Shown here one piece after another: positions 1-11,618 of a stretch of 11,618 nucleotides of DNA (positions are counted from its first letter, which is position 1; each line of letters starts with the position of its first letter). The notes under the pieces are model-generated. The model searched no databases. It saw nothing but the letters and a program-made list of their open reading frames with translations, and was not told the origin of the DNA. This DNA is from a virus (taxonomy: Duplodnaviria; Heunggongvirae; Uroviricota; Caudoviricetes), in the IMG/VR virus record IMGVR_UViG_2585427748_000011, positions 1 to 11,618 of that record. The stretch is one strand, 5' to 3'. A program made the position numbers and the translations under genes.

Positions 1-333
1 ACTGGCATGTTTCATGATGTAACGCATGCCGGTGATGTATTGCCCCTCATGCTGACTGGCGCGGCTGTACGGGGGATTACCAAAGGCAGCACCTTTAAGC
101 TCCGCAAGACGTTCAGACCAGTCATGCGCCAGCGCGTTGTCTTCCGCAGTGTAATAAGCGGCACATTTGGCGTTATCACCATCAGTGAACAGATCCAGAA
201 CAAACGGGCCAAACAGGGTGTTAATTCCCCAGAAAATGTTGTCCGGCGTGCGCCACTGATCGCCCACTTCCTTCAGTTCATGGGCTGGTTTGTTTCGCAG
301 CTCCACCAGCGCCTGGCAATATTTATTACTCAT
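1..333 (-). CDS. Phage Dam-family DNA N6-adenine methyltransferase, N-terminal part only (gene continues beyond left window edge)
   Basis: Reverse-complement translation from ATG at 333-331: MSNKYCQALVELRNKPAHELKEVGDQWRTPDNIFWGINTLFGPFVLDLFTDGDNAKCAAYYTAEDNALAHDWSERLAELKGAAFGNPPYS..., containing an NPPY catalytic-type motif. The ATG overlaps the TAA stop of the upstream gene (coupling). Not in the ORF track because no stop lies within the window. Confidence 0.6.
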   Translation of the reverse strand, partial: MSNKYCQALVELRNKPAHELKEVGDQWRTPDNIFWGINTLFGPFVLDLFTDGDNAKCAAYYTAEDNALAHDWSERLAELKGAAFGNPPYSRASQHEGQYITGMRYIMKHAS

Positions 334-827
334 TAAGCCCCCACGTAATTCCCTGACAGATACCACTCTTCACCCGATGCAGCGCGCTTGCTGCTTTTCC
401 GTAAGCACCGCTCACGATGCGCCAGAAAATTGTTTCGTTCTGGCTGGGAGTGGCTTTCACGGAATGCCTCCATCCACACCGTTGCAGCTCGACGGAATAA
501 GCCCCTGGACTCCAGTTCTTCAGCCTGGCGGGTCAGGCACAAAATCACCCGGGGGTCGTTAGTGCCGACATAGAAATTGCGCACAGGTCTGGTTTCACGA
601 ACTGGTTGTGGTTCCGGCTCCTGCGCTCTCTCAGTCAGGCGCGGGAAATGTCTGCGTGTATCCCCTTCACAACGGTGAGCCACACGCCCACTCTGACGTA
701 ACTTGCTTGCTGACTGCAGAACGCGCTGCCGTGAGTAACCAGCAAAAGCATCTGCAATGTCTCCGGAAGTACACCCCGGATGGGCTTCAATGAATTTCTG
801 AACGTCATTCAAAAGACTCATGATCAC
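333..827 (-). CDS. Hypothetical phage protein, 164 aa (same length as K-12 CPS-53 YfdN as I recall; function unknown)
   Basis: ORF in track; ATG at 827-825 overlaps the TGA stop of the upstream replication gene (ATGA coupling); its own stop overlaps the start of the methyltransferase gene. Confidence 0.6.
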   Translation of the reverse strand: MIMSLLNDVQKFIEAHPGCTSGDIADAFAGYSRQRVLQSASKLRQSGRVAHRCEGDTRRHFPRLTERAQEPEPQPVRETRPVRNFYVGTNDPRVILCLTRQAEELESRGLFRRAATVWMEAFRESHSQPERNNFLAHRERCLRKSSKRAASGEEWYLSGNYVGA

Positions 828-1765
828 CCCCTGAATCCTGCCGGGATCTGGCTGTAGTCCACGTTGTCGTAACTGGCTTTGAAGTACGGGTCTTCGCGTT
901 TTTCGGTGTACGTGCTGACGGACGGTGATAAGCGCAGGGAAAGCTCATCCCATTTTTCCCGCAACTTCGACGGGCTGAGCACGTTACGGCACCAGAACGG
1001 ATCGCGGCTGACGCGGCTGTACATCTCGCAGATTTGTTTGTGAGTACGACCATCCTGCACACACATCAGGCGAATTTCGTTTGCCCAGGCTGTCCAGTTC
1101 GGTTCTTTGGGACGAACCACCTCGCCGTCACATTCGGCGGCTTGCTCGTACAGGGCGATGATTTTTTTCCAGAGCCACTGTGCGCAGGTCAAATCATCCT
1201 GCGTTCCCCACTGGCGCTTTTTAGGGCTGAATACAACCGCATCAGGATGGCGAGTTAAAAAATCCTGTTCATCCGTCTGCGTGTCCGGTTGCGAAGCGTC
1301 CGGACGAGAAGGTTTTTTATCTGACGGATCATGTTTTGATTTTACTGACGGATCCCCGCCAGATTCTGACGGGTGAAAACCCGCTTTTTTGCCAGATTTC
1401 GACGCATCAAATTTTGACGGGTCAGATTTTGATGCGTCAGATTTTGACGGGTCAGAATCTGACAGTTGAGAAAATGCCGCTGCCTGAAGCTTCGCAACGT
1501 TAAGCTGATAAACATTCGACGCATTGCGGTTACCCTGGCGACGCGCCTTACGTGTTAACCAGCCTTCTGCTTCCAGCCGTGCGATAGCCGTCCTGACGGT
1601 ACTCATCCCCGCGCCAATCTGACGGGCAATAGTTTCAATTGATGGCCAGCACACACCTTCGTCATTACTGAAATCAGCCAGGCGGGCCATAATTGCCACG
1701 CTGGATAATTTCATGCCTGATGCAGCGCAACCATCCCATACATAGCCGGTTAATTTAGTGCTCAT
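824..1765 (-). CDS. Phage replication initiation protein (O-like; N-terminal winged helix-turn-helix domain, repeat-encoded linker)
   Basis: 313-aa ORF; N-terminus (SVAIMARLADFSNDEGVCWPSIETIARQIGAGMSTVRTAIARLEAEGWLTRKA) resembles the HTH domain of phage replication initiators. Central low-complexity linker SDPSKSDASKSDPSKFDASKSG is encoded by tandem DNA repeats. RBS GAGG 7 nt upstream of ATG at 1765. Confidence 0.7.
   Translation of the reverse strand: MSTKLTGYVWDGCAASGMKLSSVAIMARLADFSNDEGVCWPSIETIARQIGAGMSTVRTAIARLEAEGWLTRKARRQGNRNASNVYQLNVAKLQAAAFSQLSDSDPSKSDASKSDPSKFDASKSGKKAGFHPSESGGDPSVKSKHDPSDKKPSRPDASQPDTQTDEQDFLTRHPDAVVFSPKKRQWGTQDDLTCAQWLWKKIIALYEQAAECDGEVVRPKEPNWTAWANEIRLMCVQDGRTHKQICEMYSRVSRDPFWCRNVLSPSKLREKWDELSLRLSPSVSTYTEKREDPYFKASYDNVDYSQIPAGFRG
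1318..1470. repeat. Iteron-like direct repeats (candidate replication origin) inside the replication initiator gene
   Basis: Core CTGACGG/TTGACGG/TTGATGC recurs at 1321, 1345, 1366, 1399, 1414, 1429, 1444, 1459. The last five copies are spaced exactly 15 bp apart (unit approx TTTTGACGGGTCAGA). Confidence 0.5.
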
Positions 1766-1774
1766 GACCGACCT

Positions 1775-2113
1775 CTATTTCCCTGAATTTACGACGAAAC
1801 TGTTCGAGCGGGCTGAAGCACTCATGCTCATAGCCTTCGCGGAGGTAGATAACTCGTTGTGTTTCCGGCTCCCAACGAATGACTCTGACGGGCACTCCGT
1901 AGTGATCTTTGAACCAGCGGTTAACTTGTCGCAAAGGACTGTCTCCTTCTGCCGGTTGAAATCACCCACAGCCCACTCAGCAAAGCTGTGGGTTACAATT
2001 TCCCTGTCACCTGGTACATTAACTGCATAGCAATACTCCACCTTCGCTTTTCCACCCGGTACAGGAAGCGCAATCAGTTGCGAGCGACGGTAGTGTGTTG
2101 TTAAACTGTTCAT
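1775..2113 (-). CDS. Hypothetical protein, 112 aa
   Basis: ATG at 2113-2111 overlaps the TGA stop of the upstream cII-position gene (ATGA). Stop at 1775-1777 is followed by GAGG and the ATG of the replication gene, so it fits the coupled minus-strand operon. Strand choice over the overlapping + ORF 1758..2030 rests on this context. Confidence 0.5.
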
Positions 2114-2718
2114 GCGTTAGTTTCTCCACAGTCACGACACGCCACGGCGCCCGGAGCTGCACACTCGCGGGCGTCATTACTTTCTGAAATGCAAAAGATT
2201 TTGTAGACCAGTGCTGCATGCTCCTGCAGCTTCGAAATTGAGAGATACAGCTCGTCGTTAATTGCTGTCTTCTCATGCGGTTCCACCACACCGTCTTCGA
2301 TTGCCGAACGAATCTGTCTGGAATAACTGCCAATCTGTTCAATGACTTCCAGCAGGCGCTGGTTAATATCGGCGTTGTCCACATCCTCGACGTCAGGAAG
2401 AGACACAAAGACGCCATTTGCAGACTGCGCCACAGCGTCAGCAATGAAGTGAGTTCCACCAGCACGTTGCAAAATCATTGCCCATCCCAGCGGGAAAATC
2501 TGATCGCCATCGGCACGAAGACGGTTAAATAATGCGTTTTCTGTTACATCCAGCCAGTCAGCTGCTTCAGCGTAACCACCCGGCAACGCTGCGATAGTTT
2601 TTCTGACAGCTTTCACGTACCACTCAGGCTGTTTTTCTACTTTCCAGTGATGCTTACCCACGGTTAGCCTCATCGTTCTGTGGTTTCTGTTAATCGATTT
2701 ATCCATTAGATTTTTCAT
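2110..2718 (-). CDS. Regulatory protein at the cII position of the immunity region (possibly phage CII/CP76- or YdaT-like); start uncertain
   Basis: Track ORF 2110..2775 begins with GTG at 2775 and would overlap the cro-like gene by 77 nt. In-frame ATGs at 2718 (MKNLMDKSI...) and 2706 (MDKSI..., overlapping the cro-like TAA) are more plausible. Functional call is by position and vague family recollection only. Confidence 0.5.
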
Positions 2719-2899
2719 AAAGCTCAGGTTTAAATGGCAACCGTCCGCAAGTTCTATATGCAGCTTCTGCTGCACGTCCTTTTGGAATTAACTGGCCCGG
2801 ACGGTTTCGCCACTGATAAACGGCTTCAGTTGTTATGCCGAAAAAAGCAGCAACTTTCTCAATACTGCCGAAGTAGCTTTCGATATCGTCAGTTGTCAT
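2699..2899 (-). CDS. Cro-like small HTH DNA-binding protein (Cro/YdaS-like)
   Basis: 66 aa, MTTDDIESYFGSIEKVAAFFGITTEAVYQWRNRPGQLIPKGRAAEAAY has an HTH signature. Divergent from the repressor gene; RBS GGAGGG 3-5 nt upstream of ATG at 2899. Confidence 0.65.
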   Translation of the reverse strand: MTTDDIESYFGSIEKVAAFFGITTEAVYQWRNRPGQLIPKGRAAEAAYRTCGRLPFKPELYEKSNG

Positions 2900-2996
2900 A
2901 CGCCCTCCAAACTAAGTTTTATTAGATGCTAATTACAAATCTATCTTTGGTCAATAAAAACTAAGATTACTTAGCAATTCAAGAAATGGTGCTCCT
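2900..2996. promoter_or_regulatory. Divergent immunity control region (OR-like): candidate PR-like promoter for the cro-like operon plus operator dyads
   Basis: On the minus strand: -35 TTGACC (plus coords 2949-2954), 17-bp spacer, -10 TAGCAT (2926-2931). 11-bp dyad AAACT-A-AGTTT at 2909-2919 over the predicted start/leader; partial copy AACTAAGAT at 2959-2967; CTAAG-ATTA-CTTAG at 2961-2974. No convincing repressor promoter found by eye. Confidence 0.4.
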
Positions 2997-3623
2997 ATGG
3001 AAACGGTTGGTCAGCGTATAAAAGCTCTGAGAAGAGTTACCGGAACGTCCCAGAAAGAATTGGGTAAATTTTGTGGAGTAAGCGACGTTGCTGTGGGGTA
3101 CTGGGAGAAAGACATCAATACCCCTGGTGGGGAGGCACTTTCGAAATTAGCGAAGTTCTTCAATACGTCAATAGATTACATTCTTTATGGTGCTGAGTTT
3201 GAAGGCAAACTCGTCACAAACATGCGCAGAGTTCCTGTAATATCGTGGGTTCAGGCTGGGCAGTTTACTGAGTGCAGGGCAGCAGAAGTGTTTAGTGAAG
3301 TGGACAAGTGGGTAGATACATCATTAAAGATTGGTGATAACTCATTTGCATTAGAGGTTAAAGGTGACTCCATGACTAACCCTAATGGCCTCCCAACAAT
3401 ACCAGAAGGCGCAACAGTGATTGTAGATCCAGATGCAGAACCTCGTCATGGAAAAATAGTCATCGCTCGACTTGATGGAACAAACGAAGCTACAGTAAAA
3501 AAATTAGTCATCGATGGCCCTCAAAAGTTTTTAGTGCCATTAAATCCTCGGTATCCCAACATCCCTATCAATGGTAATTGCCTTATCATTGGTGTAGTCA
3601 AAGGAGTTCAATACGAACTCTAA
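2997..3623 (+). CDS. CI-type prophage repressor (N-terminal HTH_XRE, C-terminal S24 LexA-like autopeptidase)
   Basis: 208 aa. N-terminus QRIKALRRVTGTSQKELGKFCGVSDVAVGYWEKD is an XRE-type HTH. C-terminal domain has the Ser motif GDSM and downstream Lys (ATVKKLV) of the S24 Ser-Lys dyad, and a LexA-like cleavage site VQAG-QF. Confidence 0.85.
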   Translation: METVGQRIKALRRVTGTSQKELGKFCGVSDVAVGYWEKDINTPGGEALSKLAKFFNTSIDYILYGAEFEGKLVTNMRRVPVISWVQAGQFTECRAAEVFSEVDKWVDTSLKIGDNSFALEVKGDSMTNPNGLPTIPEGATVIVDPDAEPRHGKIVIARLDGTNEATVKKLVIDGPQKFLVPLNPRYPNIPINGNCLIIGVVKGVQYEL

Positions 3624-3644
3624 GACCTCTCTTCTCTAACTAAG

Positions 3645-3678
3645 GCACCGAACTAAGAAAAGTTTGGTGTTTTCTCTT
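3645..3678 (+). terminator. Candidate intrinsic terminator downstream of the repressor gene
   Basis: Stem CACCGAACT (3646-3654) pairs with AGTTTGGTG (3661-3669), 9 bp with one G-U; loop AAGAAA; followed by TTTTCTCTT (3670-3678). The reverse strand has no U-tract. Confidence 0.5.
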
Positions 3679-3705
3679 GCCATAATAACTAAGTTAAGTT
3701 AGATT
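3677..3705 (+). promoter_or_regulatory. Candidate pL-like early-left promoter with operator dyad in the spacer (OL-like)
   Basis: -35 TTGCCA (3677-3682), 17-bp spacer, -10 TAGATT (3700-3705). Spacer contains dyad TAACT-A-AGTTA (3686-3696), same core as the dyad at 2909-2919. Identified by eye only. Confidence 0.3.
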
Positions 3706-3910
3706 TTATATCAAAGATAACGAACAGGCAGGACGCCCACGAAGTAGCCGCCTGGGGCATATGAAGTCCAGGATGATTCGTTGAGTCATGTTGTGCCACT
3801 AGGCACTCATGTTAAAGCAGGTGTATGAAATGAAAGTCCAGATTTTAAACAATAACTGTGAAGTCGTTTGGGCGTAAAACATGACCGCGCGTAGACCAAG
3901 GGAGGAAAAA

Positions 3911-4087
3911 GTGGGAATAGTTAGAAATCAAGCAGATATATTGAAAATCAGCTCTGAATTGCTTGGAGTTTTGAAAAGTGAGCTCACCGCACATGGCATC
4001 GAGCCCACTGACGAAAATTTAAGTTGGGTTTTGTCGATTATTCAACAATCACTCAAGCCCAGCCTCAGCAAACTTTTTATCGAGTAG
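3911..4087 (+). CDS. Small hypothetical protein (58 aa from GTG 3911; 68 aa if ATG 3881)
   Basis: Strong SD GGGAGG (3899-3905) 6 nt before in-frame GTG 3911; ATG 3881 has no SD. AT-rich island; overlaps the 3' end of a convergent minus-strand ORF by 39 bp. Confidence 0.35.
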   Translation: MGIVRNQADILKISSELLGVLKSELTAHGIEPTDENLSWVLSIIQQSLKPSLSKLFIE

Positions 4088-4240
4088 TGCTTCGAACTTA
4101 TCGTAAAGCTTGCTTATGTCGTCTATCGGGTTTTCTGACGTACTGTAATTTTTATCTGATGTCATGGCAGCAGTCTGATATGCAGTGTGAGTCTTAACCG
4201 ATAGTTGGAATAAATAAAGAATTTTTTCTTCTTTGGTCAT
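4049..4240 (-). CDS. Small hypothetical protein, 63 aa (MTKEEKILYLFQLSVKTHTAYQTAAMTSDKNYSTSENPIDDISKLYDKFEALLDKKFAEAGLE)
   Basis: ATG at 4240-4238 preceded on the minus strand by AAGGAA at about 8 nt spacing. The track ORF 4049..4282 starts further upstream without an RBS. AT-rich, convergent with the repressor and the + strand small ORF. Confidence 0.45.
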   Translation of the reverse strand: MTKEEKILYLFQLSVKTHTAYQTAAMTSDKNYSTSENPIDDISKLYDKFEALLDKKFAEAGLE

Positions 4241-4495
4241 AACTATTTCCTTCTTGGCTATATGAAAACACCAAGATACCACCGAGCCTGAAGTGGTGAA
4301 AAGACAGGCACATAACAGCTAAGTATTTTCAACCAGAGAGAATCCTTAGCGTTGTGGTGAATGCGGCTCAGCGCACGCGGGTTAAGGTTGAGGCTGACAG
4401 TCGACCTTCTGTGGATACCCACCCGCCTGGTGTGCAACTTTCGCCAGGCACCGGGAGGCACCCGGCACCACAACTTTATGCTGTGTGTAGTCCTC

Positions 4496-4541
4496 GCGGT
4501 ACCAGTTTGTACACTTGCTTCCGGCTGGTACCGCTCTTTTT
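4496..4541 (+). terminator. Terminator-like hairpin in the untranslated leader (possible 3' end of a small RNA or an antiterminated terminator)
   Basis: Perfect 10-bp stem GCGGTACCAG (4496-4505) / CTGGTACCGC (4525-4534), 19-nt loop, then TCTTTTT (4535-4541). The loop is long for a canonical terminator. Confidence 0.45.
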
Positions 4542-4630
4542 ACAAAACAGAGAAGAACATCACCGGACGACGGGCTCATAACCCAATCCATCCGGGCGGC
4601 TGCCACCGCAGGTGTTCTTCTCTGTTTTGT
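4542..4630 (+). other. Long perfect inverted repeat (18 bp arms, 53-bp spacer) predicted to form an extended RNA stem; candidate RNase III processing site or structured regulatory RNA
   Basis: ACAAAACAGAGAAGAACA (4542-4559) is the exact reverse complement of TGTTCTTCTCTGTTTTGT (4613-4630). The stem can extend with G-U pairs into the preceding U-tract. No ORF with an RBS spans it. Confidence 0.4.
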
Positions 4631-4678
4631 GGAGAAACCAACCGACCTTGCAGGGTCGATATGATTAGGAGCAGAAAA

Positions 4679-5041
4679 ATGGCTAGCGAACGCAGTACTG
4701 ATGTGCAGGCATTTATTGGGGAGCTGGACGGCGGCGTATTTGAAACCAAAATCGGCGCAGTTCTCAGTGAAGTCGCTTCCGGTGTGATGAACACGAAAAC
4801 CAAAGGTAAGGTCTCACTCAACCTGGAAATCGAACCATTTGATGAGAACCGTGTGAAAATCAAACACAAACTCTCATATGTTCGCCCGACTAACCGCGGG
4901 AAAATTTCCGAAGAAGACACCACCGAAACGCCGATGTATGTCAATCGCGGTGGTCGCCTGACTATTCTGCAGGAAGACCAGGGACAATTACTGACTCTTG
5001 CCGGTGAACCTGACGGAAAACTCCGCGCAGCAGGTCATTAA
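4679..5041 (+). CDS. Hypothetical phage early protein, 120 aa (YfdP-like by length and position)
   Basis: ATG 4679 preceded by AGGAG (4667-4671, spacing 7). The track ORF 4361..5041 carries a 106-codon Arg/Cys-rich N-terminal extension across the structured region, judged non-coding. Confidence 0.7.
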   Translation: MASERSTDVQAFIGELDGGVFETKIGAVLSEVASGVMNTKTKGKVSLNLEIEPFDENRVKIKHKLSYVRPTNRGKISEEDTTETPMYVNRGGRLTILQEDQGQLLTLAGEPDGKLRAAGH

Positions 5042-5106
5042 TATCGTTCTTAATTAACCGATTATTTATCTCATCACTGAATATCTTTATATAGTGAGGA
5101 CTTATT

Positions 5107-5931
5107 ATGTCTCAGAACTTAGACGCAACCGCAATTAATCAAATCCATGCCCTTATTTCTGCTCAGGGTGTTAATGAAATTATCAGTAAGATTGGTGCCG
5201 ATGCTGTGGCATTGCCTGAGAATTTCCGCATTCATGATCTGGAAAAATTTAATTTAAATCGCTTCCGTTTCCGTGGTGCGCTTTCCACTGCCAGCATCGA
5301 TGACTTTACCCGTTATTCTAAAGATCTTGCAGATGAAGGCACCCGCTGCTTTATCGATGCCGATAATATGCGTGCCGTCAGTGTGCTTAACCTGGGTACT
5401 ATTGGTGAACCAGGTCACGCAGATAACACCGCCACACTCAAACTGAAAAAGACAGCACCGTTCTCTGCTCTGTTGTCTGTTAACGGCGAGCGTAACTCCC
5501 AGAAGTCACTGGCAGAATGGATTGAAGACTGGGCCGACTATCTTGTGGGCTTTGATGCTAATGGTGACGCTATTAAGGCAACAAAAGCGGCTGCGGCGGT
5601 CCGTAAAATCACGATTGAAGCAAACCAGACCGCTGATTTTGAAGATAATGACTTCAGCGGCAAACGCTCCCTGATGGAGTCTGTCGAAGCGAAGACCAAA
5701 GATATTATGCCAGTGGCATTTAAATTTAAATGCGTTCCGTTTGAAGGCCTGAAAGAACGTCCGTTTAAATTACGCCTCAGCATTATCACTGGCGATCGTC
5801 CTGTACTGGTTCTGCGCATTATTCAGCTGGAAGCAGTGCAGGAAGAAATGGCTAACGAATTTCGTGATCTGCTTGTTGAGAAATTTAAAGACAGCAAAGT
5901 AGAAACCTTTATTGGTACTTTCACCGCCTGA
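5107..5931 (+). CDS. Hypothetical phage protein, 274 aa (YfdQ/DUF2303-like by recollection)
   Basis: ATG 5107 preceded by GTGAGGA (5094-5100); clean 274-aa ORF; family assignment is from memory of length and gene order in CPS-53. Confidence 0.7.
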
Positions 5932-5943
5932 TTTCATTACTGC

Positions 5944-5965
5944 AAATGCCCCTGCGGGGGCATTT
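5944..5965 (+). terminator. GC-rich hairpin between genes (weak terminator or mRNA-stabilising stem)
   Basis: AAATGCCCC (5944-5952) / GGGGCATTT (5957-5965), 9-bp perfect stem with UGCG loop. The 3' flank ATGGAAAC lacks a real U-tract. Confidence 0.3.
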
Positions 5966-6059
5966 ATGGAAACATAATTGACTCAATAATCGCCTGATGG
6001 CGAGGGTTTTCTTTAACCAAAATTCAGCGCGGTGCAGCGCATATAAAGTGGAGAACAAA

Positions 6060-6596
6060 ATGTCATTTATTAAAACTTTTTCCGGGAAGCATTTTTATTA
6101 TGACAGGATAAATAAAGACGACATCGTGATTAACGATATCGCGGTTTCCCTTTCAAATATCTGCCGCTTTGCCGGTCATCTTTCTCACTTCTACAGTGTC
6201 GCCCAACATGCGGTGCTTTGCAGCCAGCTGGTGCCGCAGGAATTTGCTTTTGAAGCGTTAATGCATGATGCAACAGAAGCGTATTGCCAGGATATTCCCG
6301 CTCCACTGAAACGCCTTCTTCCTGACTATAAACGGATGGAAGAAAAAATAGACGCCGTAATCCGTGAGAAATACGGGTTACCCCCGGTTATGAGCACGCC
6401 CGTGAAATATGCCGATCTCATCATGCTGGCAACCGAACGCCGCGATCTCGGGCTTGATGATAGCTCTTTCTGGCCTGTACTGGAAGGTATCCCGGCAACA
6501 GAGATGTTCAAAGTGATTCCACTGTCGCCAGGCCATGCCTACGGGATGTTTATGGAACGTTTTAACGAGTTATCGGAGTTACGCAAATGCGCATGA
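6060..6596 (+). CDS. HD-domain 5'-deoxynucleotidase (YfbR/YfdR-like dNMP phosphohydrolase)
   Basis: 178 aa from ATG 6060 (GGAG at 6049-6052); HD-domain signature H...HD...D in VAQHAVLCSQLVPQEFAFEALMHDATEAYCQDIPAPLKRLL. The track ORF start at 5997 lacks an RBS. Confidence 0.75.
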   Translation: MSFIKTFSGKHFYYDRINKDDIVINDIAVSLSNICRFAGHLSHFYSVAQHAVLCSQLVPQEFAFEALMHDATEAYCQDIPAPLKRLLPDYKRMEEKIDAVIREKYGLPPVMSTPVKYADLIMLATERRDLGLDDSSFWPVLEGIPATEMFKVIPLSPGHAYGMFMERFNELSELRKCA

Positions 6597-6937
6597 ATGT
6601 TTTCGAAATGGAAGGGTTTCTTCGCGGGAAATGTGTACCACGAGATCTGAAAGTGAATGAAACAAATGCTGAGTATCTGGTGCGTAAATTCGATGAAGTA
6701 CGTGCTGAGGCTCGCAACGAGGGTATTAACTATACCGCAAGCCGTCTTGCTGCGGCTTTCAATCACGGATTTATCAATAAGTCTTTACGTGAAGTTTTCG
6801 ACGTTACACGCATGATTCTGTCAGCGAAAGAAGAGTTGGCTAATGAACCACACCCGATTGATGGCCTGTCCGGTGAATATGCGGAGAAATCCCTAGAAGA
6901 ATGGGCGGAACAGATTCGCAAAGGAGGCAACCAGTGA
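6587..6937 (+). CDS. Hypothetical early protein X, 116 aa (C-terminus ...EEWAEQIRKGGNQ)
   Basis: GGAG (6575-6578) 8 nt before ATG 6587; alternative ATG 6593 forms ATGA with the upstream stop. Its stop TGA overlaps the GTG start of the next gene (GTGA). Confidence 0.6.
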   Translation: MRMNVFEMEGFLRGKCVPRDLKVNETNAEYLVRKFDEVRAEARNEGINYTASRLAAAFNHGFINKSLREVFDVTRMILSAKEELANEPHPIDGLSGEYAEKSLEEWAEQIRKGGNQ

Positions 6938-7614
6938 GCAAGATTGACTATCAAGAACTGCGCGAGGCGGCGGAACAGGCAACGCAAGATGAATGGGTAG
7001 CATATATTTTGCCGGGTCATAACGGCATTTATCCTGCGCGCACGTCTGAGGGTAGGCATTGCGGATACTTTATTGACTGGCCTGGCGTCTGTCAGGGGCG
7101 GGAGAGCATCAGCATCAGAACCTACGCAGTGAATTGCAATGACGCATGGCTAAACACCGAAGGTGATGACATCTCCGGCTCATACGTTAAGTACAAAGAC
7201 CATCAGGAAGTGGTTGCCGCTCTTGAGGCCAAGTGCGCGGCGCTGGCTGCTGAGAATGCGGGAATAAAGTCTGCAATTCCAAAATCACGGGATATTGAGG
7301 ATGACAATGACAATATGGATGACGTATCTCTCGCGGAAGACTTCGGGTTCAATCATGCAATAGAACGGATGAGGAGACAGATACCTGAAACGCCAACCAC
7401 TGATGCTTTCCTGGCTGAAGTCCGGGCGCAGGGGGTGGATGCTGCTATAGAAGCTGCAAAAAATCTGGTGGCCCAAGAATATGAGTGTAAGGATTTCAAA
7501 GCGGCGCAGAGTGATTGCTGTATGCACCCTGGTTCAGACCTGGTAGGGAAGGTTGAAATGACTGAGTGGTTAGTTGACTTTGCTGCCCAGCTTCGCAAAG
7601 GAGGCAATCAGTGA
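6934..7614 (+). CDS. Hypothetical early protein Y, 226 aa, mosaic (N-terminus like protein Z, C-terminus like protein X)
   Basis: AAGGAGG (6921-6927) 6 nt before GTG 6934. N-terminus SKIDYQELREAAEQA; C-terminus ...DFAAQLRKGGNQ; coiled-coil-like middle. The track start ATG 6901 has no RBS. Confidence 0.6.
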   Translation: MSKIDYQELREAAEQATQDEWVAYILPGHNGIYPARTSEGRHCGYFIDWPGVCQGRESISIRTYAVNCNDAWLNTEGDDISGSYVKYKDHQEVVAALEAKCAALAAENAGIKSAIPKSRDIEDDNDNMDDVSLAEDFGFNHAIERMRRQIPETPTTDAFLAEVRAQGVDAAIEAAKNLVAQEYECKDFKAAQSDCCMHPGSDLVGKVEMTEWLVDFAAQLRKGGNQ

Positions 7615-8147
7615 GCGAAATTAATTACCAGGCACTGCGTGAGGTGGCGGAACGTGCAATTCCAGCAATGGAACGCCTGTTAATGTTGCCAGTTGATGAT
7701 GATTTGTTAAGTGAACAGGAACTTAAAGATTACGGTGTGGATATTGATGCGCTCAATGCCTTCAAATTTCTGACCGGACCAGAAACCGTGCTGGCACTAC
7801 TGGATGAACGGGAAAGAAACCAGCAATACATCAAACGCCGCGACCAGGAGAACGAGGATATTGCGCTTACGGTTGGGAAGCTGCGCGTTGAGCTTGAAGC
7901 AGCAAAATCAAAACTCAACGAGCAGCGCGAGTATTACGAGGGAGTTATCTCTGATGGGTGCAAGCGTATTGCTGAACTGGAAGCGCGGGAAGTTCAATTA
8001 CCGACTCGCTACGACCTTCGATATGGACACCCGATAAATGCAGATGAGCGACAAGTCATGATACCTAAAGAAAATGGCAGTTGGCTTTACCTGATTGACC
8101 TAGAACACGCATTACGCGTCGCTGACATTCGCATCAAAGGAGAGTGA
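7611..8147 (+). CDS. Hypothetical early protein Z, 178 aa (N-terminus SEINYQALREVAERA; coiled-coil-like C-terminal half)
   Basis: AAGGAGG (7598-7604) 6 nt before GTG 7611, which overlaps the stop of Y (GTGA). The junction sequence is near-identical to the X/Y junction. Confidence 0.6.
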   Translation: MSEINYQALREVAERAIPAMERLLMLPVDDDLLSEQELKDYGVDIDALNAFKFLTGPETVLALLDERERNQQYIKRRDQENEDIALTVGKLRVELEAAKSKLNEQREYYEGVISDGCKRIAELEAREVQLPTRYDLRYGHPINADERQVMIPKENGSWLYLIDLEHALRVADIRIKGE

Positions 8148-8148
8148 T

Positions 8149-8664
8149 ATGGCGTTAACACACCACGAACTCTGTCAGATTGCGTACAAGTTCCTTAAGC
8201 GCAACGGGTTCAAGGTTTGCTTTCATGACCGCTTTGTTGCTGTAACCAGTACCGGAGAACAGCCAGATGCTATGGGATTCAGAAATTCAGCATCATGCCT
8301 GATAGAGGCGAAGTGTTCTCGTGCTGACTTGTTGGCAGATAGAAAAAAGCGTTTCCGTAAAAATCCCTCACTTGGCATGGGCGACTGGCGATTCTTTATT
8401 AGTGAGCCGGAAATTATTTCAGTTGAGGATTTACCTCCCGGCTGGGGATTACTTCACGTTGTTAACGGAAGAGTACGGAAAGTACATGGATGGCCCAGGG
8501 GTAATTGCTGTTGGGGTAATCCTGACGATAAGCCATTTACCGGGAATAAGCAGGTTGAATGCGATTACATGTTATCTGCATTAAGGCGCATGGAGCTAAG
8601 AGGACACCTTAATGAAATATATGACGGTGTAATTGTTAATAAGAAAGAAGGAAACGCAGCATGA
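8149..8664 (+). CDS. PD-(D/E)xK nuclease-superfamily protein (MmcB-like by recollection)
   Basis: 171 aa; RBS AGGAGAG before ATG 8149; motif D...E-x-K in GEQPDAMGFRNSASCLIEAKCSRAD. Confidence 0.55.
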   Translation: MALTHHELCQIAYKFLKRNGFKVCFHDRFVAVTSTGEQPDAMGFRNSASCLIEAKCSRADLLADRKKRFRKNPSLGMGDWRFFISEPEIISVEDLPPGWGLLHVVNGRVRKVHGWPRGNCCWGNPDDKPFTGNKQVECDYMLSALRRMELRGHLNEIYDGVIVNKKEGNAA

Positions 8665-9530
8665 CCACTTTAACCGACAAAGAACTGATTAAAGAAATCA
8701 GAGAGCGTATAGGCAGCCTGGACGTCCGAGACAATATTGAGCGTCGGGCTTATGAAATTGCTCTGGCATCGCTGGAACGCGAACAGATTCGCCACGAGCA
8801 TGCCAAATGGTCTGACTCCACATTTGGCTGCGTTGGCCCCATTGGTCCGCTGAAACATCTCTCAAAAGAGGCACTGGAAGCCGCAGCCGAACCAGACGAT
8901 CTTAGCGAGTGGGCTGATATGCAGTTTCTGTTGTGGGATGCACAGCGCCGTGCTGGCATCAGCGATGCTGAAATTACCGCTGCTATGGAAGATAAATTGA
9001 AGATCAACATGGAACGCCAGTGGCCTGAACCAAAAGATGGTGAGCCTCGCTTGCACATTAAAGAACCCGGCAACTCTCCGGTAACTCCGGCTCGCCTGCC
9101 TGGTGGTTTCACCATTGAGGATGCGAAGGCATTACATGAAGACCTGGTTCGCAGCCACATAAGCCAGGCTTTAAGTGGTGAAAAGATGAAAAAGAACGAT
9201 CGCGATGCTGATTTGCGCTGGATTCATGGCGTAATAGTTCAGGCAGCGTGGTTTGTAAAAGCATCACTGGAGCAAAATGCACTATCGGGCAACTATCCGG
9301 TAACTCCGGATGGTTGGATAAGCTGTAGTGAGCGAATGCCGAAAAAGAATCAGAACGTACTTATTTCGGTGAATTTCGATAGTGATCTGGTTGAGCCGCT
9401 AATATGCTCCGCACGCTATACCGGAAGTACCTTTCGGCGAGGACAAGCAACGATTAAGCCGGGTAATGGTATTGAGCAGGCAACCCACTGGATGCCGCTG
9501 CCAGAACCGCCGCAGGAGGTGAATCAATGA
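8661..9530 (+). CDS. Two-domain phage protein: N-terminal MazG-like NTP pyrophosphohydrolase-type region (DUF550-like), C-terminal DUF551-like domain
   Basis: 289 aa; ATG 8661 overlaps the upstream stop (ATGA), RBS GAAGGAAA. N-terminal acidic helical motif EALEAAAE...EWADMQFLLWDAQRRAGISDAEI; C-terminal WISCSERMPKK...THWMPLPEPP. Domain names are from memory. Confidence 0.55.
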   Translation: MTTLTDKELIKEIRERIGSLDVRDNIERRAYEIALASLEREQIRHEHAKWSDSTFGCVGPIGPLKHLSKEALEAAAEPDDLSEWADMQFLLWDAQRRAGISDAEITAAMEDKLKINMERQWPEPKDGEPRLHIKEPGNSPVTPARLPGGFTIEDAKALHEDLVRSHISQALSGEKMKKNDRDADLRWIHGVIVQAAWFVKASLEQNALSGNYPVTPDGWISCSERMPKKNQNVLISVNFDSDLVEPLICSARYTGSTFRRGQATIKPGNGIEQATHWMPLPEPPQEVNQ

Positions 9531-9610
9531 GCTGGCCTGATGCAATCGTAACTCTGGGGATGGTATTCGCAGTAGCGTTTGTTGTGTACTCGATTTGTCG
9601 ATGGGGATAA
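9527..9610 (+). CDS. Small hydrophobic peptide, 27 aa (MSWPDAIVTLGMVFAVAFVVYSICRWG), predicted single transmembrane helix
   Basis: Strong SD AGGAGGT (9514-9520) 6 nt before ATG 9527, which overlaps the upstream TGA (ATGA). Too short to appear in the ORF track. Confidence 0.45.
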   Translation: MSWPDAIVTLGMVFAVAFVVYSICRWG

Positions 9611-9614
9611 CCAC

Positions 9615-9857
9615 ATGTTCGCTTTGATTCAACGCGGTCAGATATACACGGACAGAGCTGGATACCCCGTGGTGATTACTCGCATCACTGAGCACTCAGT
9701 GTTCTTTCGACGGATGGACGGACGATCCGGGCGGGTACGCATTGGTGAGTTAAACTGCCTGTTCGAACATATTGACCACCAGGAGTACCGCAAAATTCTC
9801 GCGGACACTGAGCAGGAAAAGCACCTGAAAAAATTACGAGCCATAAAAAGGAAGTAA
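9615..9857 (+). CDS. Hypothetical small phage protein, 80 aa (possibly DUF4222-like)
   Basis: ATG 9615 with weak SD GGGGA; the track ORF starts at TTG 9579 inside the preceding peptide ORF. Basic C-terminus KHLKKLRAIKRK. Confidence 0.5.
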   Translation: MFALIQRGQIYTDRAGYPVVITRITEHSVFFRRMDGRSGRVRIGELNCLFEHIDHQEYRKILADTEQEKHLKKLRAIKRK

Positions 9858-9860
9858 AGA

Positions 9861-10007
9861 ATGAATAAAGCATTTGAACGATGGGTCCACCAGCGTTACG
9901 GCAATCGCTATGACCTGACGCGAGATGTTGACGGCTTCTACTGTCGTGAAGTTGTGAAGCGAATGTTTGAAGTGTGTTGCCACTGCCGTGGGCTGAGTGT
10001 TGTGTGA
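9861..10007 (+). CDS. Small Cys-rich protein, 48 aa (MNKAFERWVHQRYGNRYDLTRDVDGFYCREVVKRMFEVCCHCRGLSVV)
   Basis: AAGGAAG 6 nt before ATG 9861; its stop lies beside the GAGG RBS of xis. Four Cys in the C-terminal 20 residues. Not in the ORF track (below length cutoff). Confidence 0.4.
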   Translation: MNKAFERWVHQRYGNRYDLTRDVDGFYCREVVKRMFEVCCHCRGLSVV

Positions 10008-10015
10008 GGTAATAC

Positions 10016-10252
10016 ATGGGCAATGTGATTCAACTGGCTCCCAATGAATGGGTTTGTGAAAGCGTTCTTATCGCAATTACCGGGCTCAAACCAGGCACAA
10101 TTCTTCGGGCCCGGAAAGAATGCTGGATGGTTGGAAGAGAGTATATTCACGTATCACCAGACGGTAATCCAAAGCCTTCCAGTGAATGTATGTATAACAG
10201 AAAAGCAATAGATGCCTGGGTCGCCTCAATGAAAAACAAACAACCCAGGTGA
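10016..10252 (+). CDS. xis: Excisionase-like protein (Xis)
   Basis: 78 aa immediately upstream of the integrase; MGNVIQLAPNEWVCESVLIAITGLKPGTILRARKECWMVGREYIHVSPDGNPKPSSECMY matches my recollection of enterobacterial phage excisionase-like proteins; RBS GAGG. Confidence 0.7.
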   Translation: MGNVIQLAPNEWVCESVLIAITGLKPGTILRARKECWMVGREYIHVSPDGNPKPSSECMYNRKAIDAWVASMKNKQPR

Positions 10253-10307
10253 TTTAATATCATGAAATATGTAAGCTCGTATCGCTCTTGGGCGTCTGGA
10301 GGTATCG

Positions 10308-11618
10308 ATGGATAAAGTCAAATATCCAACAGGCGTCGAAAACCACGGCGGCACATTACGCATCTGGTTTAATTTTAAAGGTAAACGTGTCAGGGAAAAT
10401 CTTGGTGTCCCTGACACTGCCAAGAACAGGAAGATCGCCGGGGAACTGCGGACATCAGTATGTTTTGCCATCCGCACAGGAAGCTTTGATTATGCTGCAC
10501 AGTTCCCTGACTCCCCCAACCTTCAGGCTTTTGGGGTAAGTAAAAAAGAAATTACGGTGAAGGAACTTGAAGAAAAGTGGCTGGATCTGAAACGAATGGA
10601 AATCTCTGCAAATGCATTCAATCGCTATGAATCCGTTGCAAGAACGATGGTTCCGAAAATTGGAGGCAGTAGACTGGTGTCATCGGTAACCAAAGAGGAA
10701 TTGCTGTATATCAGGAAAGATTTGCTGACCGGGTATCAGAATTCAATGAAAAACAAAGCAGCAAAAGGACGGAGCGTTGTTACTGTAAATTATTACATGA
10801 CGACAATCGCTGGAATGTTTCAGTTTGCTGCAGATCACGGTTACTTAGAAGCAAATCCCTTCCAGGGAATTAAGCCTCTTAAAAGAGCCAGGGCAGAGCC
10901 AGATCCGCTAACTCGTGACGAATTTATTCGCCTGATAGATGCTTGCCGACATCAGCAGACGAAAAACCTGTGGTCATTGGCTGTGTACACAGGAATGCGT
11001 CACGGTGAACTGGTCTCCCTGGCCTGGGAAGATATCGATCTGAAGGCAGGAACAATTACCATCAGGCGCAATTATACGAAACTTGGTGAGTTCACTCTAC
11101 CGAAAACTGAAGCAAGCACAAACAGGGTTGTGCACCTTATCCAGCCCGCTATCAGTGTCCTGAAAAATCAGGCTGAAATGACAAGACTGGGTAAGCAGTA
11201 CAACATCAAGGTGCAACTACGTGAATATGGACGTTCAGTGAACCATGAATGTACTTTCGTGTTTAACCCTCAAGTGGTTAGAAAAAGCGAACAGGTAGGT
11301 TTTGTCTACAAAGTCGATTCTGTAGGTGACTCATGGGAAACAGCCATTAAGCGTGCAGGGATCAGGCATCGAAAGGCATACCAGTCACGACACACTTATG
11401 CGTGCTGGTCATTATCTGCCGGAGCAAACCCAAGCTTCATTGCCAGCCAGATGGGCCATGCAAGTGCCCAGATGGTATTCAATGTATACGGAGCATGGAT
11501 GACTGACAGCAATGCAGAACAGATCGCAATGCTGAATCAGAAGCTGACAGATTATGTCCCAATGATGCCCCATAGTCACCAAAGTGACACCAGAGGCTTA
11601 TTAAAATCAGTAAGTTAA
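10308..11618 (+). CDS. int: Phage tyrosine integrase (lambda-Int family site-specific recombinase)
   Basis: 436 aa; N-terminal arm-binding-type region (GTLRIWFNFKGKRVRENLG). Catalytic-domain motifs: R in YTGMRHGEL, H-x-x-R-type motif at AYQSRHTYACW, nucleophile Tyr in VFNVYGAW. RBS GGAGG 5 nt upstream. Stop codon is the last 3 bases of the window. Confidence 0.9.
   Translation: MDKVKYPTGVENHGGTLRIWFNFKGKRVRENLGVPDTAKNRKIAGELRTSVCFAIRTGSFDYAAQFPDSPNLQAFGVSKKEITVKELEEKWLDLKRMEISANAFNRYESVARTMVPKIGGSRLVSSVTKEELLYIRKDLLTGYQNSMKNKAAKGRSVVTVNYYMTTIAGMFQFAADHGYLEANPFQGIKPLKRARAEPDPLTRDEFIRLIDACRHQQTKNLWSLAVYTGMRHGELVSLAWEDIDLKAGTITIRRNYTKLGEFTLPKTEASTNRVVHLIQPAISVLKNQAEMTRLGKQYNIKVQLREYGRSVNHECTFVFNPQVVRKSEQVGFVYKVDSVGDSWETAIKRAGIRHRKAYQSRHTYACWSLSAGANPSFIASQMGHASAQMVFNVYGAWMTDSNAEQIAMLNQKLTDYVPMMPHSHQSDTRGLLKSVS

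Follow-up and report, generated by a model that had tools for sequence, protein, structure and literature searches.

Two convergent, overlapping genes beside a prophage repressor

The window analysed here, by which we mean the whole stretch of 11,618 nucleotides (nt), is Caudoviricetes DNA (IMG/VR record IMGVR_UViG_2585427748_000011, positions 1 to 11,618). Judged by its gene order, it is a lambdoid Escherichia coli prophage of the SfII/SfV/e14/KplE1 (CPS-53) type. Between its cI-type repressor gene and yfdP sits a pair of small convergent genes, which we call the cassette and which lies 257 nt past the repressor stop codon. The plus gene (3911-4087, + strand; 58 amino acids, aa) belongs to PHROG 15476 and is without RefSeq annotation; the minus gene (4240-4049, - strand; 63 aa) corresponds to WP_000159356.1 and PHROG 2605. 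The two coding sequences overlap tail to tail, so that the 39 nt at 4049..4087 are read on both strands.

Both genes have good ribosome-binding sites. The Shine-Dalgarno element of the plus gene, AAGGGAGG (3898-3905), ends 5 nt ahead of a GTG codon at 3911, and that of the minus gene, AAGGAA (reverse complement of 4247-4252), ends 6 nt ahead of the ATG at 4240. The plus open reading frame (ORF) could be extended to an ATG at 3881, which would give 68 aa up to position 4087, and the minus frame is open from 4282 to 4049. The upstream ATG at 3881 lacks a ribosome-binding site and is not conserved. Because the plus homologues begin at the equivalent of 3911, with either ATG or GTG, we take the protein to be 58 rather than 68 aa long. 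The region is rich in A and T: the G+C (GC) content of 3880-4260 is 0.399, against 0.478 across the window, a value that only 1.6% of all 381-nt windows fall to; the one with the least GC in the entire sequence starts at 3898. A preliminary description of this DNA had reported both ORFs, their Shine-Dalgarno elements, their overlap and their AT-rich location, and on these points the sequence and the list of ORFs bear it out.

Conservation and selection on both strands

The convergent overlapping pair was present in 55 of 55 related loci, at identities down to 52% for the plus and 61% for the minus protein, next to repressors of diverse immunity types. The overlap in homologues measures 39, 36 or 27 nt. 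The pair was found again in two distant loci (L064 and L067), where the minus protein is 44% identical; overall, homologue identities reach down to 47-52% for the plus and 28-61% for the minus protein. Homologues of each protein occur in a collection of 5.8 billion proteins. The minus family is narrow, since it forms only 16 clusters at 50% identity among 1.84 billion representatives. A scan of genome contigs with the plus alignment returned only one locus. Wherever they are named, both proteins are called hypothetical.

Selection was assessed by Nei-Gojobori counts restricted to the parts of each gene outside the overlap. The proportions of synonymous (pS) and nonsynonymous (pN) differences were 0.63-0.64 and 0.27-0.28 for the plus gene (pN/pS 0.43), and 0.77 and 0.16 for the minus gene (pN/pS 0.21). 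As a control, the same aligned blocks of eight diverged sequences were read in all six frames. The claimed frames had no stop codons and the lowest pN/pS, and the other five frames contained 8-33 stops, with 8 and 22 stops in the codon-matched antisense frames. Synonymous divergence was lower within the overlap (pS 0.42-0.46) than in the flanks (0.63-0.77), as expected from dual coding.

Could only one strand, or neither, be coding, with the second ORF a chance antisense frame? RefSeq annotates the minus ORF and misses the plus gene, and antisense frames of real genes are frequently open. Yet the claimed frame is the sole stop-free frame of six and has the lowest pN/pS, and the plus protein retains invariant motifs in homologues as distant as 47% identity. 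On the sequence evidence this explanation is refuted, and we give it next to no weight. We conclude from these comparisons that both ORFs are genuine protein-coding genes.

The plus gene follows a predicted, operator-marked promoter

Only four places in the 11.6 kb carry the motif AACTAAG-N4-STTAG: 2910 and 2959, both between cro and cI, and 3651 and 3687, on the far side of cI. Counting both strands, there are seven matches where 1.1 are expected, a number that none of 200 shuffles reached. A promoter scan predicted a + strand promoter (TTGCCA 3677-3682, 17-nt spacer, TAGATT 3700-3705) among the two downstream sites (3651-3666 and 3687-3702; the whole spans 3651..3705). Because the site at 3687-3702 overlaps the -10 of this promoter, we assigned 3677-3705 as the early-left promoter (PL) and the sites as its left operators (OL). 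Similarity to prophages with other repressors (the ymfK type and others) starts at about 3719, directly past the predicted PL, in agreement with the assignment. As a side observation, the right operator region (OR; cro-cI region, 2910-2976) and OL (3651-3704) of this immunity type have two sites each.

No terminator was found on the plus strand between PL and the plus gene, and no conserved promoter was found upstream of the plus gene itself. Since PL lies upstream with no terminator between, the plus gene is predicted to be the first gene of a repressor-controlled early-left operon. The preliminary description had cast both genes as possible lysogen-expressed accessory genes; for the plus gene this is not supported, because a gene on the downstream side of PL should be subject to repression in the lysogen.

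The predicted PL transcript carries at its very 5' end a conserved structured RNA element of about 70 nt (3714..3788, + strand), which forms the left flank of the slot and lies downstream of differing PL promoters in many loci. RNAalifold gave 15 base pairs, seven of them with compensatory changes, and both the closing stem and the inner hairpin covary. The element includes a nearly invariant 30-nt stretch, beginning GGACGCCCACGAAGUAGCC. A covariance model scored 95 bits here and found one copy per locus; no Rfam family matched. This RNA could be a processive antiterminator or another leader signal. It resembles the HK022 put element putL in position and size, and the covarying stems would fit as well. 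A relationship with put was considered, but the covariance model found no match in the HK022 stretch expected to hold PL and the early-right promoter PR, a stretch in which the record annotates no cI, cro or nun, and found no second, putR-like copy in the window.

A promoter-like element shared by unrelated minus-side genes

The minus gene is preceded by some 60 nt that retain about 90% identity in loci whose proteins have fallen to 61%. This block also precedes the non-homologous genes ymfI of e14, an 81-aa ORF of SfV and gp50 of the Salmonella phage 118970_sal3. In these three loci the similarity ends at the -10 (TATGCT, TATCCT), as expected for a shared promoter with interchangeable transcribed cassettes. 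In the present window the leftward element occupies 4273..4300 (- strand), with a moderate -35, TTCACC (4300-4295), a 16-nt spacer and an extended -10, TGgTATCTT (4281-4273), and we predict that it is the minus gene's own sigma-70-type promoter. It lies back to back with an STnc100 gene, and its copy in the e14 locus (L058) is at 2501-2566. Among 5426 complete E. coli genomes, about 850 contain the block, whether or not they carry the present pair, and 63 have the full cassette. The spacer between -35 and -10 contains a dyad, ACCAC-N11-GTGGT.

Two other possibilities were considered and set aside. An RNA structure in the minus leader was rejected because the changes in one homologous locus (L050) do not compensate one another, and the element is treated here as a promoter acting at the DNA level. 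The cI terminator and the minus leader share 11 identical nt (3664-3674 and 4264-4274), a match that was likewise dismissed: chance alone would give about 0.4 of them, and its cI side is confined to one immunity type.

No intrinsic terminator was found inside the cassette on either strand, here or in seven homologous loci.

A hot spot for alternative cassettes

The order of cI, a plus-side gene and an opposing minus-side gene is constant at these loci, where the repressors are only 26-44% identical to one another. The content of the slot varies even among close relatives: SfII carries the present pair, and SfV carries orf33. In SfV, orf33 (98 aa) faces an 81-aa ORF of PHROG 3311 that is missing from the SfV annotation, with an 83-nt overlap (locus L057, 3591-4050). 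Other occupants are ymfJ (102 aa) and ymfI (113 aa) in e14, overlapping by 63 nt (L058, 1896-2483); CDS3 and CDS4 of phage Kati, overlapping by 29 nt (L060, 875-1487); and gp51 and gp50 of 118970_sal3, overlapping by 38 nt (L061, 1757-2306), the plus-side gene being named first in each case. The e14, SfV, Kati, sal3 and present cassettes showed no homology to one another by BLASTP or hhalign. Every protein of the alternative cassettes belongs to a PHROG family of unknown function, and Pfam matched none of them. These observations uphold the earlier suggestion of an accessory-gene hot spot beside the repressor.

The slot also bears traces of exchange. Just ahead of the plus gene lies a 22-codon remnant of an SfV orf33-type gene (3809..3877, + strand), closed by a stop codon, whose translation, MLKQVYEMKVQILNNNCEVVW, is the N-terminus of SfV orf33; similarity to SfV ends at about 3873. 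We interpret this remnant as the recombination scar of a past cassette replacement, marking the left junction. Fusion proteins tell a similar story on the plus side. In locus L067 (4151-4543, - strand), a 130-aa protein combines an N-domain like that of Kati CDS3 with a plus-like C-domain (PHROG 15476) and faces a minus-type gene, and in PHROG 2982 a YmfJ-like N-terminus is joined to a plus-like C-terminus. Domain comparison thus suggests that the plus-side proteins are mosaics with a common N-terminal function and an exchangeable C-terminal specificity. By the same comparison, the plus-type domain stays with a minus-type gene while other parts are exchanged. It is well supported that the region is a mobile, conserved two-gene cassette at the first position of the predicted PL operon, and that the convergent overlapping layout is kept across unrelated cassettes; one cassette gene is predicted to depend on PL and the other to have its own counter-directed promoter.

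The e14 locus is the closest known parallel in layout. It has the same order of cI-type repressor (ymfK/cohE), PL, the same leader RNA, a plus gene and an opposing minus gene, followed by the same leftward promoter element and an STnc100-like region. YmfJ and YmfI are larger than the present proteins and have no detectable similarity to them (hhalign probability below 1%; BLASTP). Late in the response to DNA damage, ymfJ RNA increases by a log2 of 4-4.8 (~16- to 28-fold), in company with intE and ymfM; the YmfJ protein has been detected, and the authors explain the delay by regulation through the CI-like repressor (PMC11002266). In a separate study based on RNA sequencing coverage, ymfI-ymfJ appears on a list of convergent excludons (PMC12288877). 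The e14 data fit a model in which the plus gene is driven by PL and the minus gene is transcribed separately. Beyond these SOS and excludon lists, the literature on ymfI and ymfJ held nothing functional.

Predicted proteins

Both proteins are net negative, and both lack hydrophobic stretches and transmembrane segments. AlphaFold2 (AF2) placed helices at residues 6-27 and 34-55 of the plus protein (predicted local distance difference test score, pLDDT, 70) and at residues 3-28 and 38-59 of the minus protein (pLDDT 73), with a loop between the helices in each case, so that each is predicted to form an acidic hairpin of two helices. When the proteins and their family alignments were scanned against Pfam, NCBIfam and PADLOC, there was no match of known function, the PHROG matches of both were of unknown function throughout, and PDB sequence profile searches returned only chance matches (E above 0.4). 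The earlier observation that neither protein resembles a named family was thus reproduced by profile and structure-prediction searches. Binding to other proteins is the usual mode of action of small acidic helical phage proteins, and both products are more likely to be protein binders than DNA binders.

A proposed lysogeny-lysis switch

We propose that 3890-4300 is a self-contained, horizontally exchangeable accessory cassette, in which antisense-opposed genes with cognate products switch between lysogeny and lytic growth; we put the probability of this reading at roughly 45%. The plus gene would be read from the repressor-controlled PL, about 200 nt upstream, and would stay silent in the lysogen; upon induction or infection its product would be the first protein to appear. 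The minus gene would be read leftward from its own sigma-70-type promoter and, because that promoter is its own and conserved, could be expressed in the lysogen. Because the ORFs overlap and no terminator was found between them on either strand, each transcript would be antisense to the other, as the preliminary description had also reasoned, and the dominant promoter would suppress the opposing gene. The outcome would be an excludon-type switch, with the minus gene on during lysogeny, and the plus gene on and the minus gene off during lytic growth. We infer that the two proteins are cognate partners because the plus-type C-terminal domain invariably occurs alongside a minus-type protein; the early plus protein would then modulate or neutralise the lysogen-phase minus protein. 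The most plausible role would be a lysogen function that must be shut off for the phage's own lytic growth. That the cassette acts in the lysogen at all is speculative, and the exclusion of other phages is the obvious candidate.

This proposal builds on what the sequences show: that both genes are real, that they are linked and hold a constant position, that operators mark PL, that the minus-side element is conserved, and that the slot keeps recurring in one layout. Several points weigh against it. Expression timing, mutual antisense repression, the protein interaction and the biological role are what we infer from these features, and the co-occurrence of the two genes could be plain physical linkage, since they overlap. 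The predicted minus promoter matches only 8 of 12 hexamer positions and was not listed by the promoter scan. In one metagenomic contig (L066, 4100-4400) the minus-type gene appears split by a frameshift and the plus-type gene is intact, which could reflect either an error in sequencing or a genuine pseudogene. The AF2 models are of moderate confidence (pLDDT 70-73), fold searches yielded nothing beyond generic helical hairpins, and no defence, toxin or antitoxin model matched either protein. The e14 evidence, on our analysis, concerns non-homologous genes of the same slot, and there ymfI changes little late in the SOS response, slightly up rather than down (PMC11002266).

The genes might instead be functionally independent, one an early lytic gene and the other a lysogen-expressed moron, co-inherited through a 3' overlap that reflects compaction and not regulation. 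The overlap does make recombinational separation destructive, the plus-side N-domains are freely shuffled (the Kati CDS3-like and YmfJ-like fusions), which indicates that the slot recombines, and the interaction of the proteins is a proposed one. What makes us consider independence unlikely is that the plus-type C-domain stays with a minus-type gene down to ~45-50% identity and through domain fusion, and that five non-homologous cassettes keep the convergent overlap, which is hard to explain without selection for the layout. A different emphasis would make the leftward RNA the main function: fired against PL from the conserved promoter, and antisense to the first early gene and the PL leader, it would damp leaky expression of the early-left genes (xis, int and others) and stabilise lysogeny, with the minus ORF as a passenger. 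Face-to-face promoters are an established form of temperate-phage regulation, as in P2 and 186, and the promoter-like element is more conserved than any cassette, common to unrelated ones, and far more widespread among the complete E. coli genomes than the present pair. A passenger ORF, however, would not be expected to be under strong purifying selection (pN/pS 0.21) or to keep a good ribosome-binding site, and all of the alternative minus-side ORFs belong to conserved PHROG families; we regard this explanation as distinctly unlikely.

Small size, tight pairing and a prophage site beside the repressor would suit a strict toxin-antitoxin or abortive-infection module, as the preliminary description had entertained, with the minus protein as toxin and the plus protein as antitoxin or the reverse; a plus gene first expressed on induction would also suit an antidote. 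We think this very unlikely. The genes are not co-transcribed, none of the Pfam, NCBIfam and PADLOC toxin, antitoxin and defence models matched, both proteins are acidic and lack a transmembrane segment, and a lysogen-expressed toxin with a repressed antidote would kill the host unless it were conditional. The plus protein could also be imagined as a ribbon-helix-helix repressor of the Arc/Mnt/CopG type, acting on the ACCAC-N11-GTGGT dyad of the minus promoter. The pattern ILKISSELLGVLKSEL..G..PT..NLSWVLSII is loosely like strand-helix-helix, and the dyad does exist in the promoter spacer; but the AF2 model begins with a helix at residue 6 and has no N-terminal strand, no ribbon-helix-helix Pfam model matched even at E = 10, the protein is net negative, and the dyad is kept alongside unrelated plus-side proteins too. 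We rejected this fold, and the corresponding regulatory scheme is highly improbable.

A broader form of the switch proposal would extend it to the whole slot. The alternative occupants might be interchangeable cassettes of one design, each with a lysogen effector read from the shared leftward promoter and a cognate antidote or modulator at the first position after PL, the two overlapping convergently so that inactivation of the repressor would flip expression from the effector to the antidote. We offer this extension as a doubtful one.

Comparison with known systems

Excludons are convergent or divergent genes whose overlapping antisense transcripts make their expression mutually exclusive. 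Among known arrangements, they are like the cassette in having convergent genes with necessarily overlapping transcripts and facing promoters, one of them under a switch-like repressor. Here the cassette messenger RNAs must overlap because the coding sequences themselves do, by 39 nt, and not the untranslated regions alone; for the e14 pair, RNA sequencing has shown such an overlap (PMC12288877). The unit is moreover a mobile cassette in a phage early operon, and mutual exclusion is a prediction.

The preliminary description had likened the locus to lambda rexAB, which is co-transcribed with cI upstream of OL/PL. The position beside the repressor stands, and the cassette shares a variable, non-essential, AT-rich accessory locus with rexA/rexB and with other repressor-adjacent exclusion genes such as bstA of Salmonella phage BTP1, an exclusion gene beside the repressor. 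The likeness ends there: neither protein matched the RexA or RexB family, the cassette is instead downstream of PL and separated from cI by a terminator and PL, and one of its genes is antisense to the other.

A moron, in the definition of Hendrix and Juhala, is an additional gene that has entered among conserved phage genes and brings a promoter and a terminator of its own. The earlier suggestion of a moron was right as to variable presence at a fixed site, as between the close relatives SfII and SfV, and deviating base composition; the cassette further resembles morons in that its minus gene has its own predicted promoter and the orf33 recombination scar lies at its junction. The suggestion fails on the terminator, as none of the cassette's own was found, and unlike morons the cassette consists of two opposed genes, one of them dependent on the phage PL.

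With type II toxin-antitoxin systems the cassette shares two small, tightly linked genes on a mobile element. It is convergent rather than an operon, no DNA-binding antitoxin domain was detected, and no homology was found among Pfam, NCBIfam, PADLOC or PDB sequence matches. In type I systems a small hydrophobic membrane toxin is opposed by a non-coding antisense RNA; here, by contrast, both strands encode conserved acidic amphipathic proteins without a hydrophobic stretch. The suggestion of a toxin-antitoxin-like pair is not supported.

Genomic setting and neighbouring features

Over positions 3600-5110, the window matches the E. coli KSC1031 chromosome at 100% identity and Shigella phage SfII at 98%. 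The minus-strand genes of the window are a replication gene, a DUF4222 gene, ymfL (in the cII position) and cro; the plus strand carries the cI-type repressor, then yfdP, yfdQ, yfdR and others, with xis and int at the end. The repressor (2997..3623, + strand) is of the LexA/S24 type, with Pfam matches to HTH_3 and Peptidase_S24 (9e-28 and 1e-10) and the RefSeq name LexA family protein. Behind it lies an intrinsic terminator (3645..3679, + strand), a 10-bp hairpin of -12.6 kcal/mol followed by the U-tract UUUCUCUUG; a terminator is annotated at the equivalent site in the SfII and SfV records.

The right neighbour of the slot is a small RNA gene of the STnc100 family with its terminator (4321..4543, + strand; Rfam RF02076, 48.5 bits against a gathering score of 47, E = 3.8e-8). 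A second, weak STnc100-like match (23 bits, E = 0.1) lies at 5923-6103 (+ strand), between yfdQ and yfdR. The first match is overlain by a RefSeq pseudogene, a "frameshifted hypothetical protein" at about 4354-4664 of the window, probably called in error where the RNA is structured. Past the STnc100 terminator, and ahead of the start of yfdP, there is a long inverted repeat (4542-4630, + strand) with 25-nt arms, 88% complementary, and a 39-nt loop, which is also kept in e14 and SfV. An Rfam match to mir-5880 at 1390-1464 (- strand) is spurious; it reflects a run of short repeats (…ATCTGAC…GTCAAAA…) within the replication-initiator gene, and these look like the origin iterons of a lambdoid O-type gene.

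Implications for temperate phages

Repressor-adjacent loci are where temperate phages keep genes that alter the lysogen, including those for exclusion, defence and virulence. The present locus adds to them two small proteins that are uncharacterised yet clearly under selection, and it makes a practical point, namely that standard annotation misses the plus gene. It also reveals a repeated design rule, in which genes are opposed and overlap, one predicted to be under repressor control and the other under a shared counter-promoter; the rule recurs with unrelated genes in many enterobacterial prophages, including e14 of the laboratory strain E. coli K-12. If this design is an effector/antidote toggle between lysogeny and lysis, it would offer a simple route to new phage defence or conversion pairs and would explain K-12 genes that have long been without an assigned function. 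Should the slot indeed hold interchangeable cassettes of one design, they would be prophage modules of a new class, for conversion or exclusion, with self-immunity built in, for which ymfI/ymfJ would be a ready model in K-12.

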